From NCBI GenBank assembly GCA_000092065.1, contig CP000589.1: a stretch of 64,000 bases of DNA; one strand, 5' to 3'. The DNA is from Ostreococcus lucimarinus (taxonomy: Eukaryota). Below are positions 11,880 to 44,498 of the stretch, one piece after another (the stretch's first letter is position 1; each line of letters begins with the position of its first letter). The position numbers were made by a program, and so were the translations under genes. The notes under the pieces are model-generated. The model did not search any database and was not told the DNA's origin. It saw only the letters and a list, made by a program, of their open reading frames with translations.

Positions 11880-11970
11880 GCCCATCACACCACGTGTTGT
11901 ATTACTTTTACAATCCTTGTTAGTCATATTCTGTCGCTTTGCGATCGTCGCGCGCTTTCATCGGACGAAA
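11880..11970 (-). promoter_or_regulatory. candidate SECIS element region in the MsrA 3' UTR (unverified fold)
   Basis: Minus-strand 3' UTR read 5'->3': ...ccgATGAaagcgcgcgacgatcgcAAAgcgacagaatATGActaacaaggattgtAAAagtaatacaacacgtggtgTGATggg. It contains the SECIS core elements (AUGA, unpaired AAA, UGAU) at plausible spacing. I could not verify the helices by eye. Confidence 0.3.
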
Positions 11971-12064
11971 TCTCAGACGCAATGGCGTCTTTTGCGATTT
12001 CGTCGTCACGCGCGCGCGGACGTCGCTGCGCGAAAACAAATCTACTACTTTGACGCGACGAAAA

Positions 12065-12673
12065 TCACCACCCGAAACGCGACACGCGCGGTTTATTGTA
12101 GTACTTTTGATGGTACTCTTCGGCATCCCACCACGGTGTCGCTAAAGAGACCTCCGGCGGGTAGATATCGGTGAAGAACTTTCGCTGCACTTGCTTCTCG
12201 CGCGCTTCCTTGGACGCCACCGCTTTTTCGTACTGCTCGGGCGTCTGCGCCCAAATAGCGCTCTTATACTGCGCTTTGCTTTCGTACGTGGGTTGATGCT
12301 CGCTCCAAAACTGTTCCAACAGCTTATCGAAGCTCGTCGTCGCCGCGTCGTACGCCACGTAATACCCCTCCGTGTGCCCGGTTCCTCCGGCACACACCGC
12401 TGAATACGTCGGGAAATCGCTCTCGCCTCCTGTGTACCCGACCCTGACGTTCTTCACGCCCTTGAGCGCGCTGAACGAGGCGTCGGGCCCCCAAAATCAC
12501 CCAGAGGCGAAGACGGCGAGTTGGCAATTTTCCGGGACGACGAAACCATCGCCGCGGTCGGTGCGCCGCGCGTCCTTGCTCGCGGGCATCGCGGCGAGCG
12601 CGCGGACGTTTCTTTTGTTCGCGGACGCGCGCGAGGGAGCGGCGACGCGCGCGGTCGCGACGGCAGCGCGCAT
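12065..12673 (-). CDS. MSRA: peptide methionine sulfoxide reductase A, selenocysteine-containing (in-frame TGA at 12497-12499 replaces catalytic Cys of GCFWG)
   Basis: Two same-frame ORF-track entries (12497..12934 ending ...ENCQLAVFASG, and 12065..12457) are separated only by TGA. Read-through gives AVFASG-U-FWGPDASFSALKGVKNVRVGYTGG...TGHTEGYYVAYD...EHQPTYESKAQYKSAIW, a textbook MsrA with Sec at the catalytic position. Start trimmed to ATG (MRAAVATARVAAP, presequence-like) at 12673. Total length 202 aa. Confidence 0.8.
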
Positions 12674-12845
12674 CGGGACGCGCGTCCCGGTGTGACGTGG
12701 CCGCACAGATTTCGACCGCGCGGGCGCGCGCGGTCGAAATCTGAGGCGCACACCGGCGCGACGCGACGCGCGCGCGAGACGAAAGCTAGAGATATGATGA
12801 GTAAAAATATTAATCTCGCGCGCGACGACGACGGCGAGCGCGCGA

Positions 12846-13400
12846 TCAGCGCAGGATGACCAGAGACCAATCCGGGAACTTTGCGTTCCAGTATCGAACG
12901 CCCATCTGCGCGAGCGTTCGCGAGTTATCGTCAAACTTCTTCCCCGCGTACGCCAAGCGCACGAGCCCCGGCATGACTCCAGTTTTATCCGCGATGAGCT
13001 TTTTCACCTCGTTCACGCGCGTGGTGTCCGAGACGTCGATCCAGAACGGCCCTCCGTACTCGCAGTCGACGTGCAGCATGCTCGTGACGAGCAGACGCAG
13101 CGTCTTCGGCGGCTTTCTCATCGCCGCCACTTTCGCGTCGATGAAGCTCCCGAGCGGAATCCCTTTCGCCACGGCCTCGGCTTTATCCTTCAAGTATTCC
13201 TCGCGCGTCGGATCGTACATGGGCGTCCACTCCGAGCTCACCCCTCCCTCCCCGCGCGTCGCCGGCGCGTACCTCTCATCCTCCTCGTACCACGGGTACC
13301 CACCGTTCGGCGGGATCGTCGCCGTCGCCCCCGACCCCCCGGTCCCGGGCGCGTTGTTATACTTTGAAAACGCGAGGTCCGAGCTTCGATACGTCGGCAT
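12846..13400 (-). CDS. ubiquitin-like domain protein
   Basis: 184-aa ORF with verified ATG. The C-terminal ~75 aa (LRLLVTSMLHVDCEYGGPFWIDVSDTTRVNEVKKLIADKTGVMPGLVRLAYAGKKFDDNSRTLAQMGV) has a beta-grasp/ubiquitin-like pattern. Confidence 0.5.
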   Translation of the reverse strand: MPTYRSSDLAFSKYNNAPGTGGSGATATIPPNGGYPWYEEDERYAPATRGEGGVSSEWTPMYDPTREEYLKDKAEAVAKGIPLGSFIDAKVAAMRKPPKTLRLLVTSMLHVDCEYGGPFWIDVSDTTRVNEVKKLIADKTGVMPGLVRLAYAGKKFDDNSRTLAQMGVRYWNAKFPDWSLVILR

Positions 13401-41299: not shown

Positions 41300-42568
41300 A
41301 TGGCGCGCGCGCGCGCGAGCGATCGGCGGCGACCCGCGGCGGCGCTCGCGGTGGCGCTGACGCTCGCGTGCGTCGCGCGCGCGACGACGCGAGGCGCGGC
41401 GCCACCGACGCGCGTCGAAAAGATGACGACGCGACGCGCGGCGCGCGACGCGTTCGCGTCGACGACGAGCGGCGACGCGAGGACGCTCGACGACGCGCGA
41501 CGCGCGTTCGCGTTCGCGAGCGATCGCAAGGCGCACGCGCTGGTGACGGGCGGCGCGGGATTCATCGGGTCGCACTGCGCCGAGGCGCTGCTGCGGCGCG
41601 GCTACGCGGTGACGACGGTGGATAACATGAGCCGAGGGAACGCGGGCGCGGTCGAGGCGCTGCGAAGGATGGCGCCGAAGGGAAGCCTGCGAGCGGTGCG
41701 AGGGGATCTGGGCGTCGTCGAGGACGTGGACGCGGCGTTCGGGAACACGAACATGCCGGTGGACGCGGTGTTTCACTTCGCGGCCATCGCGTACGTGGGG
41801 GAGTCGATGGCGGATCCGGTGAGGTATTACTCGAACATCACGACGAACACGGTGAATTTATTGCGAGTGATGCAGGCGAAAGATGTGAGGAAGATGATTT
41901 ACAGCTCGACGTGCGCGACGTACGGGAACGTGGAGAAGTTGCCCATCACCGAGTCGACGCCGACGAGGCCGATTAATCCGTACGGCAAGTCCAAGTTGTA
42001 CGCCGAAAACGCGATCAAGGATTACGCGCTGGCGAATCCAAAGTTTAAGGCGTCGATTTTGCGGTATTTCAACGTGTTCGGGGGCGATCCCGAGGGCGTG
42101 TTGGGCGAGTTGCCGCGCGCGGAGTTGCGCGAGCACGGGAGAATTTCCGGCGCGTGCTTCGACGCGGCGATGAAGAACATCGACAAGCTCACGGTGATGG
42201 GGACGAAGCACCCGACGCGGGACGGGACGACGATACGAGACTTTGTGCACGTCGTAGATTTAGTGGACGCGCACATAGCGGTGGCGGAAAAGAACAAATT
42301 TGATAATCCTCCGTCGTTGTACAACGTCGGCACGGGGAGCGGCGTGAGCATGCGAGAGTTCGTGGAGACGTGTAAAAAGGTGACGGGCGTCGACATAGAG
42401 ATTCACTATCGCGCTGAACCTCGGCCCGGAGATTACGCCGAGGTGTACGCGAACGTGGACAAGATCAAACACGAGCTCGGGTGGGAGGCAAAGTACACGG
42501 ATTTGCACGAGAGCCTGACGCACGCGTGGAAGTTTAGAAAAACGAAGGGCGACACCTGGGAATTGTAA
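41300..42568 (+). CDS. NAD-dependent UDP-sugar 4-epimerase (GalE/UDP-arabinose 4-epimerase MUR4-like, type-II membrane anchored)
   Basis: VTGGAGFIGSH Rossmann, YSSTCATYG...PINPYGKSK (SxnYxxxK). The N-terminal hydrophobic anchor (AAALAVALTLACVA) resembles Golgi UXE/MUR4 enzymes. Trimmed to in-frame ATG (MARARASD). Confidence 0.8.
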   Translation: MARARASDRRRPAAALAVALTLACVARATTRGAAPPTRVEKMTTRRAARDAFASTTSGDARTLDDARRAFAFASDRKAHALVTGGAGFIGSHCAEALLRRGYAVTTVDNMSRGNAGAVEALRRMAPKGSLRAVRGDLGVVEDVDAAFGNTNMPVDAVFHFAAIAYVGESMADPVRYYSNITTNTVNLLRVMQAKDVRKMIYSSTCATYGNVEKLPITESTPTRPINPYGKSKLYAENAIKDYALANPKFKASILRYFNVFGGDPEGVLGELPRAELREHGRISGACFDAAMKNIDKLTVMGTKHPTRDGTTIRDFVHVVDLVDAHIAVAEKNKFDNPPSLYNVGTGSGVSMREFVETCKKVTGVDIEIHYRAEPRPGDYAEVYANVDKIKHELGWEAKYTDLHESLTHAWKFRKTKGDTWEL

Positions 42569-42605
42569 ACGAGCTGTAATTGTACTACCGTAGCAACGAA
42601 TTTTT

Positions 42606-43538
42606 CTACAAATCGCTAAGTGTCTGCGCGAACGCGCCCTCTAACATCGCCATCTCTTCGAACACATCGTCTCGAGACCCGTCGAGCGCGCGCGCGTCGC
42701 GTAAGAGCGCGCGTCGCGCTTCGTTCGCCGCCGCCGCGACGGCGGCTCGTCGGGCGTCCGCGGCGTCGGCGACGACGCGCGACACGCTCGCGCGCGCACG
42801 AACATCGAGCGCGTGCAACGCCGACTTCGCCGTCTCCGCGCGCGCGGCCTCGCGTTCGAGCTCGCGTTCCGCTTCGCTCGCCGGAACATCCGGCGCCGGT
42901 CCCCAAAACTCGAGCGCGCGCGACCACGCGGCGTCCACGTCCGTCTCCTCCGTCGCGTCCACGACGAACGCCGGAAACGTCGCCCCATCTCCCGGCGTCG
43001 TCACCGCCGGCGCCTCGAACGCGCGCGTCATGCGTTCGAACACCTCCTCCGGAACCGCCTCCGCGCCCTCGCGATTTCGATTTCGCCGTCTCGCCTCCTT
43101 CGTCGGCGCCGTCACGTGCGCGCACGCGCAGCTCGCCCTCGCCTCCCTCGCCGCGCGAAACACCTCCCACCGCATTCCTCTGTAATACATGTTATCGTCC
43201 ACGATCACCACCGTCTTCACGCCGTCTTCTCGCGCGTTTCCTCGTCTCGTCGCCGCGTCGACGTCCGCCGCCGCCTCGGCGCGCGCCGCTCGCCACCGCG
43301 CCGGCTCGAACGCCGTCGTCCCGTCCTCGCGCGTCATCGCGCGCAGCTCGCGCGCGTCGTAACGCGCGTGATGCGCGTCGTGCCCGCTCTCGCGCGCGCG
43401 TCGCGCGAGCGCGCGCGCGAGCGTCGTCTTCCCGACCCCCGGCAGGCCGCACAGGACGAGCACGAGCGTCTTGGACGCGTCCTCGCGCGGCGCGCGCGCC
43501 GCTCGCGGACGCGACGCGGCGTCCGAGGCGGTGGCCAT
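42606..43538 (-). CDS. PSTK: probable L-seryl-tRNA(Sec) kinase (PSTK); KTI12/PSTK P-loop kinase family
   Basis: LVLCGLPGVGKTTLARALA P-loop. VVIVDDNMYYRGMRWEVFRAAREA matches the PSTK D-D-N-x-Y-Y-x-x-M-R-x-E-V motif (human LVLDDNFYYQSMRYEVYQLARK). The downstream segment (...CAHVTAPTKEARRRNRNRE...VPEEVFERMTRAFEAP) parallels PSTK (CQLFLDCPLETCLQRNGQRP...LPPETIHLMGRKLEKP) better than KTI12 (DSLNYIKGFRYEL). Trimmed to in-frame ATG. Confidence 0.5.
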   Translation of the reverse strand: MATASDAASRPRAARAPREDASKTLVLVLCGLPGVGKTTLARALARRARESGHDAHHARYDARELRAMTREDGTTAFEPARWRAARAEAAADVDAATRRGNAREDGVKTVVIVDDNMYYRGMRWEVFRAAREARASCACAHVTAPTKEARRRNRNREGAEAVPEEVFERMTRAFEAPAVTTPGDGATFPAFVVDATEETDVDAAWSRALEFWGPAPDVPASEAERELEREAARAETAKSALHALDVRARASVSRVVADAADARRAAVAAAANEARRALLRDARALDGSRDDVFEEMAMLEGAFAQTLSDL

Positions 43539-43616
43539 CGCGCGCGCCGCGCGCGGCGGCGCGCGCCGCGCCGCGCGCGACGCGGCGCGACGCAGCGCGC
43601 CGCAGAGCGCGACGCG

Positions 43617-44498
43617 ATGTCCCGCGGCGGCAGGAAGACGCACGCGCACGACGATCAGTACGGCGAGGTCGGACGCGGCGACGACGGCGACGCGCGCGAC
43701 GACGGCGCGCGATCGACCGGCGGCGCGGGCGCGCGGAAGGGCGCGAAGGGGAGCGTGGCGTACGTTCGAAGATTGCCAAAATTTCTAGAGGCGCACGCGG
43801 GACTTCTGGGCGCGACGACGACGACGCGCGACGACGACGACGCGCGAGCGACGGTGAACGACGCGGTGAACGCGCGGACGGAGGCGGTGCGCGGCGAGAC
43901 GGACGCGAGGGCGCGGACGGGGGCGGCGCCGCGGCGGTCGGCGTTGAGCGCGCTGGGATTCGACGACGACGAGTCGATCGCGGAGATGGCCGCGGTGCAC
44001 AAGGGCGAGGGGAACAGGGCGTTTCAAGAGAAGCGATTCGAAGACGCGGTGGCGTCGTTTTCGCGCGCGGCGGCGCTGGAGCCGAAAAATTGGGTGTTTT
44101 TTAGTAATCGGAGCGCCGCGTACGCCGAGCTTGGGCGGTACGACGACGCGTTGGATGACGCGAAGGAGACGATTCGATTGAACTGCGAGTGGACGAAGGG
44201 GTACGTTCGACTCGCGACGGCGTGCTCGGCGCTGGGTAGGTTGTCCGAGGCGACCGCGGCGTGGAGGAGGGCGTGCGAATTGGACGACGAGAACGCGTCT
44301 TTGCGGGAATCGCTCGCAAAAGCGGAAGCGGCGGAAGAGTCGTCCTTGAAGGAAGGCAAGTTCAAGTTTCAAGGGTCGAAGCGTAAAGAGACGGCCGGCG
44401 ACGGTGAAGACGTCGCCGGAGGCGATGTGACGGAGGCGAAGAAGAAGAAAAAGAAGCCGCCTCCCGCGACGCTGTCGTTTGCGGATGACGACGGGTGA
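43617..44498 (+). CDS. TPR-repeat protein (Hop/STI1-type TPR module, Lys-rich C-terminus)
   Basis: AEMAAVHKGEGNRAFQEKRFEDAVASFSRAAALEPKNWVFFSNRSAAYAELGRYDDALDDAKETIRLNCEWTKGYVRLATACSALGR is three canonical TPRs. Trimmed to in-frame ATG 43617. The upstream part of the ORF-track entry is antisense to PSTK. Confidence 0.65.
   Translation: MSRGGRKTHAHDDQYGEVGRGDDGDARDDGARSTGGAGARKGAKGSVAYVRRLPKFLEAHAGLLGATTTTRDDDDARATVNDAVNARTEAVRGETDARARTGAAPRRSALSALGFDDDESIAEMAAVHKGEGNRAFQEKRFEDAVASFSRAAALEPKNWVFFSNRSAAYAELGRYDDALDDAKETIRLNCEWTKGYVRLATACSALGRLSEATAAWRRACELDDENASLRESLAKAEAAEESSLKEGKFKFQGSKRKETAGDGEDVAGGDVTEAKKKKKKPPPATLSFADDDG

Follow-up and report, generated by a model that had tools for sequence, protein, structure and literature searches.

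[quoted passage not shown] The gene itself is already known: the reference genome contains it, JGI annotations list it as PSTK, and published surveys of the selenocysteine (Sec) machinery cover it. It belongs to a well-known family, of which it is an unremarkable member. The names given in different sources conflict, and the PSTK assignment was therefore tested directly. In JGI/IMG, most of the annotated members of the 90%-identity cluster to which the protein belongs are called "O-phosphoseryl-tRNA(Sec) kinase" and one is called "Kti12". In RefSeq, the corresponding protein is labelled "predicted protein, partial", that is, unnamed. The orthologue from O. tauri (XP_003081177.2, 52% identical) is labelled as a P-loop NTPase or a KTI12-domain protein. 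With PSTK, Kti12, "KTI12-domain protein" and "P-loop NTPase" all in use, database names were set aside as functional evidence. According to the analyses described below, the locus very probably encodes PSTK and not KTI12.

Reading frame and genomic neighbourhood

The frame runs from an ATG at 43538-43536 to a TAG at 42608-42606 and comprises 310 codons plus the stop, without introns and without interruption; the earlier note had given the coordinates of the gene correctly but had not named the strand, which is the minus strand. The G+C content around this frame is 68%, and two ORFs that overlap it in other frames (494 and 561 aa) were dismissed as artefacts of high G+C. In such a stretch an ORF by itself is weak evidence, and the coding status of the predicted 310-aa product rests on homology. 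G+C at codon positions 1, 2 and 3 of the frame was 0.75, 0.59 and 0.84, respectively. The complete coding sequence was assigned to the whole of 42606-43538 by the ORF list with its translation, by the identity with XP_001419760.1 and by the alignment of Mamiellales orthologues from end to end.

Homologues were collected by an exhaustive profile search, which was used instead of a word-indexed search, the latter returning only eight Mamiellales sequences. Among 1.84 billion representative proteins, 1566 matches were obtained at E<=0.001, 565 of them at E<=1e-10. Eight orthologues, with 51-59% identity to the protein, and one near-identical copy could be aligned with it over the full length. G31, G36, T38, D61, D114-Y119, G121-R123, R150, R152, N153 and R156, among others, are invariant in the alignment of the Mamiellales orthologues.

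The reference protein of O. lucimarinus CCE9901 (XP_001419760.1 / ABO98053.1), a model of 245 aa in the same 90%-identity cluster, agrees with the ORF at every position from residue 1 to residue 245 (100% identity) and lacks the final 65 residues, which are part of the presumed tRNA-binding domain. This shortening is a matter of annotation, and the ORF in the DNA is full-length.

The PSTK gene is followed by a convergent gene of the UDP-sugar epimerase type, the stop of which lies 37 nt from the PSTK stop, and then by the gene for PheRS-alpha; its upstream neighbours are a TPR gene and a MORN/filamin gene. The order PSTK-epimerase-PheRS was also found on a near-identical metagenome contig and on a contig with a 52%-identical orthologue, and the MORN/filamin neighbour is kept beside the O. 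tauri orthologue. This shared gene order supports the orthology of PSTK across Mamiellales.

Assignment between PSTK and KTI12

Were the protein the KTI12 of the alga, it would be a tRNA-dependent ATPase which aids Elongator in the modification of wobble uridine, and its likeness to PSTK would be superficial. The best Pfam match is indeed the family named KTI12 (PF08433; 83.9 bits, E 1.7e-23, cut-off 22), one member of the JGI cluster bears the name Kti12, and the O. tauri orthologue is named after the KTI12 domain. The search against PF08433 had been suggested by the earlier note; it gave the match, but membership in this family does not discriminate between the two, because the family contains both PSTK and KTI12.

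The reference sequences used for the comparison were checked beforehand. Human PSTK scored 511 bits on the NCBIfam model TIGR03575 (cut-off 382), the PSTK of Methanocaldococcus jannaschii (MjPSTK) matched PDB entries 3A4L/3ADB exactly over 248 residues, and the KTI12 queries retrieved named KTI12 proteins of plants and yeast, these database sequences being the ones used in the trees. By phmmer, the protein scored 48.9 bits with human PSTK and 37.7 bits with MjPSTK, and yeast Kti12 gave no phmmer match to it. Human PSTK outscored yeast Kti12 for each of the best 150 matches of the profile search (150/150). Among solved structures compared by sequence, MjPSTK was the best match (E 4.5e-9), and Chaetomium Kti12 was found at E 1.6e-4.

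In the AlphaFold2 (AF2) model of the protein (mean pLDDT 74, pTM 0.67), three long helices come after a P-loop kinase domain. When this model was compared with the PDB by Foldseek, the top eight matches were chains of MjPSTK (E 7e-10 to 1e-8), aligned over 279-295 columns and both domains, and Kti12 (6QP0) appeared at rank 16 (E 1e-5), amid generic kinases of nucleotides and polynucleotides, which are aligned over the N-terminal domain only. The presence of those kinases bears on another explanation, namely that the protein is some other P-loop kinase of the DxTN/AAA_33 type, like polynucleotide or gluconate kinase, and unrelated to selenocysteine. A score of 58 bits with Pfam AAA_33 and the mammalian and bacterial polynucleotide kinases found by fold at E of about 1e-6 to 1e-5 speak for such a kinase. 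These fold matches cover the N-terminal domain alone (about 170-200 columns), however, and MjPSTK is matched over both domains; moreover, a helical C-terminal domain (CTD) with LHxxDxxxRxxVS is exclusive to PSTK and KTI12 (PMC2275090), and the best relatives by sequence are all of the PSTK type. A generic kinase is thus a most improbable identity for this protein, and PSTK is the preferred one.

Two HMMs, one of PSTK-type proteins and one of KTI12, were built without any Mamiellales sequence. The protein scored 254 bits on the former versus 35 bits on the latter, and the alga's own KTI12, described below, scored 73 and 250 bits, respectively. The NCBIfam models were rejected as a decisive classifier. 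The two PSTK models were the best NCBIfam matches of the protein, with 67 bits on TIGR03574 (archaeal; cut-off 290) and 64 bits on TIGR03575 (eukaryotic; cut-off 382), far under the cut-offs, and a true KTI12 was lower by only about 20-30 bits (45 and 31 bits, respectively). That these cut-offs were not attained could be counted against PSTK and in favour of KTI12. The other PSTK-type proteins from the profile search scored 29-107 bits on the same models, which appear too narrow to settle the question.

The two paralogues can also be told apart by short motifs. The block that follows strand 3 in KTI12, DSLNxIKG(F/Y)RYEL, is absent from the protein, which has VDDNMYYRGMRWEV there. The PSTK-type signature DDNMYYRGMRWE occupies residues 114-125 (43164-43199, minus strand) in the alignment with PSTK and KTI12 references; the longer block VIVDDNMYYRGMRWEV, to which the earlier note had drawn attention, is found at residues 111-126. 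A highly conserved Trp stands in KTI12 where PSTK has Arg (Krutyholowa et al., PMC6511879), and at the position of this Trp (W123 in helix alpha-4 of yeast Kti12; PMC6511879) the protein has R152. Neither NRWDSPLF nor the longer CTD of KTI12 with LxELRRLRRxF is present; TTPGDGATFPAF and a short CTD of the PSTK type are found instead. DDNxYY versus DSLNxIKG and RNxxR versus xWN can be used as a quick discriminator of the two paralogues wherever the family name "KTI12" in Pfam is misleading.

A second gene of the family, a bona fide KTI12 for which the earlier note had proposed to look, was found in the species. The KTI12 profile search of the protein database gave only land-plant and yeast KTI12 among the matches listed. 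When metagenome contigs were scanned with an alignment of KTI12, several picoalgal loci of high G+C were obtained, with products that contain DSLNAIKGFRYELWC and NRWDSPLF. By exact-sequence look-up, the product of one of these loci was identified as XP_001419870.1 / ABO98163.1 of O. lucimarinus CCE9901, with the JGI name "protein KTI12". The protein under study has 25% identity to XP_001419870.1 over 155 residues. By sequence, then, O. lucimarinus appears to have one gene of each type, PSTK and KTI12, which is the pattern expected for a eukaryote that uses Sec.

All trees were constructed by the neighbour-joining (NJ) method with Poisson-corrected distances. The PSTK-type set was recruited by a profile seeded from the family of the protein and was anchored by MjPSTK and by human and Branchiostoma PSTK. 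In the first tree (136 taxa, 297 columns), KTI12 was separated from the rest in 100/100 bootstraps and the Mamiellales group was recovered in 98/100, and KTI12 was joined with the Mamiellales group in 0/100. When this tree was rooted on KTI12, MjPSTK was basal, followed by the clade of animal PSTK, and the group of the protein was placed deep among the remaining eukaryotic sequences. In the second tree (39 taxa, including five Mamiellales KTI12), the corresponding values were 299/300, 293/300 and 0/300, respectively, and the group was placed near the PSTK-type proteins of the green algae Myrmecia, Apatococcus and Mesotaenium. With KTI12 and this group joined in 0/400 bootstraps, the preference for PSTK over KTI12 in the earlier note is upheld by the phylogeny. 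The KTI12 reading, the chance of which is put at next to nothing, is refuted by the phylogeny together with the second paralogue, and the locus is treated as PSTK in what follows.

Active site, predicted mechanism and selenocysteine use

The N-terminal kinase domain (42912-43469, minus strand) consists in the AF2 model of a parallel sheet of five strands flanked by helices, and MjPSTK is its best match by both Foldseek and phmmer. The active site of PSTK is composed of GxP(G/A)xGK(S/T), Asp41 and R116-N-x-x-R120, residues which have been probed by mutagenesis (Sherrer et al., PMC2275090). The string LCGLPGVGKTT, noticed earlier as a P-loop, lies at residues 29-39; within it, G31-L-P-G-V-G-K-T38 (43425-43448) fits GxP(G/A)xGK(S/T) and corresponds to G14, K17 and S18 of MjPSTK. 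The Walker B Asp61 (43356-43358) is aligned with Asp41 of MjPSTK and does not vary among the aligned Mamiellales orthologues. The ATP-binding motif RNxxR is represented by R152-N-R-N-R156 (43071-43085), aligned with R116 and R120. In the alignment, all seven catalytic and ATP-site residues of MjPSTK are kept.

The C-terminal domain (residues 222-308; 42615-42875, minus strand), delimited by the AF2 model, Foldseek and an alignment of CTDs, contains LHALDxRxRxxVS, and its three helices extend over residues 222-258, 261-283 and 292-308 in the model. It is presumed, by analogy with MjPSTK, to be the domain that binds the D-arm of tRNA(Sec).

From the homology to MjPSTK, the following mechanism may be proposed. 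The C-terminal helical domain would bind Ser-tRNA(Sec) at the unusual D-arm, and the acceptor CCA-Ser end would enter the N-terminal P-loop domain. ATP would be held by K37 and T38 of the P-loop, by Asp61 via Mg2+, and by R152 and R156, and the seryl hydroxyl would receive its gamma-phosphate, with Sep-tRNA(Sec) as the product. SepSecS would then convert Sep-tRNA(Sec) to Sec-tRNA(Sec) for about 20 selenoproteins, including the Sec-MsrA of the window. Residue conservation and fold underlie this scheme, in which catalysis and tRNA specificity are ascribed by homology; the kinase activity and tRNA(Sec) specificity of the protein itself are likewise putative.

The W-D/E motif after the FExP helix, which occurs in all other aligned PSTK and KTI12 proteins, is replaced by PGDGATFPAF, and the confidence (pLDDT) of the AF2 model is low at residues 176-186, the region of the replaced motif. 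The W-E motif is kept in non-Mamiellales green algae and replaced in Mamiellales. Identity within Mamiellales is 52-61% for PSTK versus 69-73% for KTI12, and PSTK evolves faster. The fast divergence and the replaced motif both count against the PSTK assignment. A descendant of PSTK with a lost or changed function, either a decaying gene or an enzyme with altered substrate recognition, could have these properties: the lower identity, the replacement of an otherwise universal Trp motif with low pLDDT over that region, and the shortened reference gene model. Yet the ORF is intact, the shortening being in the annotation and not in the DNA, and the catalytic residues are all invariant across species; the many selenoproteins require PSTK (PMC6627142), and no other candidate surfaced in the searches made. 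Loss or change of function is accordingly considered very unlikely, and a working PSTK is preferred. It also seems rather doubtful, with congeners and sister genera compared, that the PSTK of Mamiellophyceae forms an atypical, fast-evolving lineage marked by the replaced W-D/E motif at the junction of the N-terminal domain and the linker. [quoted passage not shown]

PSTK is expected only in organisms that use Sec. A complete Sec machinery including PSTK has been described for Mamiellophyceae, and 20 selenoprotein genes are cited for O. lucimarinus (Liang et al., PMC6627142). The window itself contains the Sec-MsrA gene that the earlier note had cited at about 30 kb from PSTK. Its CDS is located at 12065-12673 on the minus strand, about 29.9 kb from PSTK, with an in-frame TGA at 12497-12499 in the context G-U-F-W-G. 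A SECIS-like hairpin, spotted by eye and folding, lies 45-120 nt beyond the MsrA stop, with a GUGA...GA core, a helix II of 9 bp, an AAAA bulge and a mini-stem (-41.9 kcal/mol, z -3.46); a GUGA_GA core has been reported for SECIS elements of Ostreococcus (PMC11227280). Rfam gave no SECIS or other family at the gathering score in the whole window and none at E<=5 around MsrA, and no tRNA gene, tRNA(Sec) included, was found in the window by ARAGORN. The Sec-MsrA in the same window and the published survey (PMC6627142) support the consistency of a PSTK with the Sec use of this organism. PSTK confirms the archaeal/eukaryotic route to Sec-tRNA(Sec) in a picoalga and accords with reading the TGA of MsrA as Sec.

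A functional linkage between PSTK and MsrA was considered and obtained no support: the two are separated by about 30 kb in which many unrelated genes lie, and on the contigs of O. tauri and other Mamiellales conservation is limited to the genes next to PSTK. The view that the proximity is probably coincidental, expressed before this analysis, is reasonable, and no sign of linkage was found.

Comparison with known systems

KTI12/DRL1 has PF08433 and the two-domain architecture in common with the protein, and KTI12 and PSTK both bind tRNA (PMC6511879). The protein lacks DSLNxIKGxRYEL, the Trp of xWN, NRWDSPLF and the longer CTD of KTI12/DRL1, and has DDNMYYRGMR and LHALDxRARxxVS.

MjPSTK (PDB 3A4L, 3ADB) consists, like the protein, of a P-loop kinase domain and a three-helix CTD. 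G14/K17/S18/T19, D41 and R116/R120 of MjPSTK correspond to G34/K37/T38/T39, D61 and R152/R156, respectively, although the identity between the two proteins is only about 18-20%. Compared with MjPSTK, the algal protein is extended by 23 residues at the N-terminus, the helix that comes after its Walker B strand is longer, and the Trp motif KYKWDEP is absent from it.

Animal PSTK (human; Branchiostoma, XP_019615146.1) has in common with the protein the DDN(F/M)YY-SMR-YE block, RNxxR and LHxxDxxLRxxVS in the CTD, and it falls on the same side of the split between PSTK and KTI12. The insertion between the Walker B and DDN strands of animal PSTK is absent from the algal protein, which is shorter for this reason. 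The nearest relatives in the tree are the PSTK-type proteins of green algae, namely those of O. tauri (XP_003081177.2), Myrmecia bisecta (KAK9813223.1), Apatococcus lobatus (KAK9817333.1) and Mesotaenium (ME000053S08224).

Selenoprotein MsrA and its flanking hairpins

The MsrA coding sequence was located at 12065-12673 on the (-) strand, with an in-frame TGA at 12497-12499 that occupies the position of the catalytic Cys in the motif FASG-U-FWGP. This MsrA is read as a selenoprotein, because the TGA lies at the catalytic Cys position and the frame remains open past it as far as the TGA stop at 12065-12067. A SECIS-like hairpin was found within the MsrA 3' UTR (11945-12020, (-) strand). Its core is GUGA...GA and its helix II spans 9 bp; it also has an AAAA bulge and is capped by an apical mini-stem. 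Folding gave an MFE of -41.9 kcal/mol with a z of -3.46. No SECIS match was obtained for this hairpin in Rfam, either at the gathering score or at E<=5.

A second, G+C-rich hairpin with a stem of about 14 bp (12709-12759, (-) strand) lies between the MsrA start and an upstream ORF with a ubiquitin-like domain (12846-13400, (-) strand). In Rfam this hairpin gave a weak, sub-threshold match to a Burkholderia sRNA, in the terminator-like end of that RNA; as a family assignment the match probably means nothing.

Gene model and neighbourhood of PSTK

The RefSeq model XP_001419760.1 ("partial", 245 aa) ends at residue 245 of the PSTK ORF, and the 65 residues beyond it (42606-42803, (-) strand) are present in the ORF and in all orthologues. 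The reference annotation is truncated, and it carries no name. In the tRNA-binding domain, these last 65 residues make up the final two helices.

The PSTK stop TAG (42606-42608, - strand) is convergent with the stop TAA of an epimerase-type gene (42566-42568, + strand), and only 37 nt separate the two stop codons (42566-42608), so the 3' UTRs of the two genes must either overlap or be extremely short. On the other side, a candidate start ATG of the TPR gene (43617-43619, + strand, MSRGGRK...) is separated from the divergent PSTK ATG by about 78 nt (43539-43616); if TPR translation starts there, both genes would share a very short upstream region.

Local synteny around PSTK is partly kept in other Mamiellales. 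Epimerase and PheRS-alpha are retained near PSTK on L083, the contig encoding the 52%-identical orthologue P0009, and the MORN/filamin neighbour is retained on the O. tauri contig L082, where no TPR gene was called within the 260 bp separating MORN/filamin from PSTK.

Divergence of PSTK and KTI12

Identities across Mamiellales lineages were 52-61% for PSTK (proteins P0002, P0008, P0009 and P0010) and 69-73% for KTI12 in comparable lineages (P0351, P0366, P0381 and P0396), so Mamiellales PSTK is evolving markedly faster than its paralogue.

The O. lucimarinus KTI12 (XP_001419870.1) was located at 2054-2929 of L041 and 2124-2999 of L043, two metagenome contig loci. KTI12 proteins of other Mamiellales, of plants, of yeast and of humans keep the conserved Trp (xWN), for which stacking on adenine has been proposed, whereas O. 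lucimarinus KTI12 has Met (AQMN), followed by a 4-residue deletion.

In PSTK, the Trp-Asp/Glu motif site corresponds to residues 175-186 (42981-43016, (-) strand), a segment with pLDDT <50 in the AlphaFold2 model of the window protein. The motif is KYKWDEP in M. jannaschii PSTK, NAWEHN in the human enzyme and NRWDSPLF in KTI12, whereas Mamiellales PSTKs have TTPGDGATFPAF in its place.
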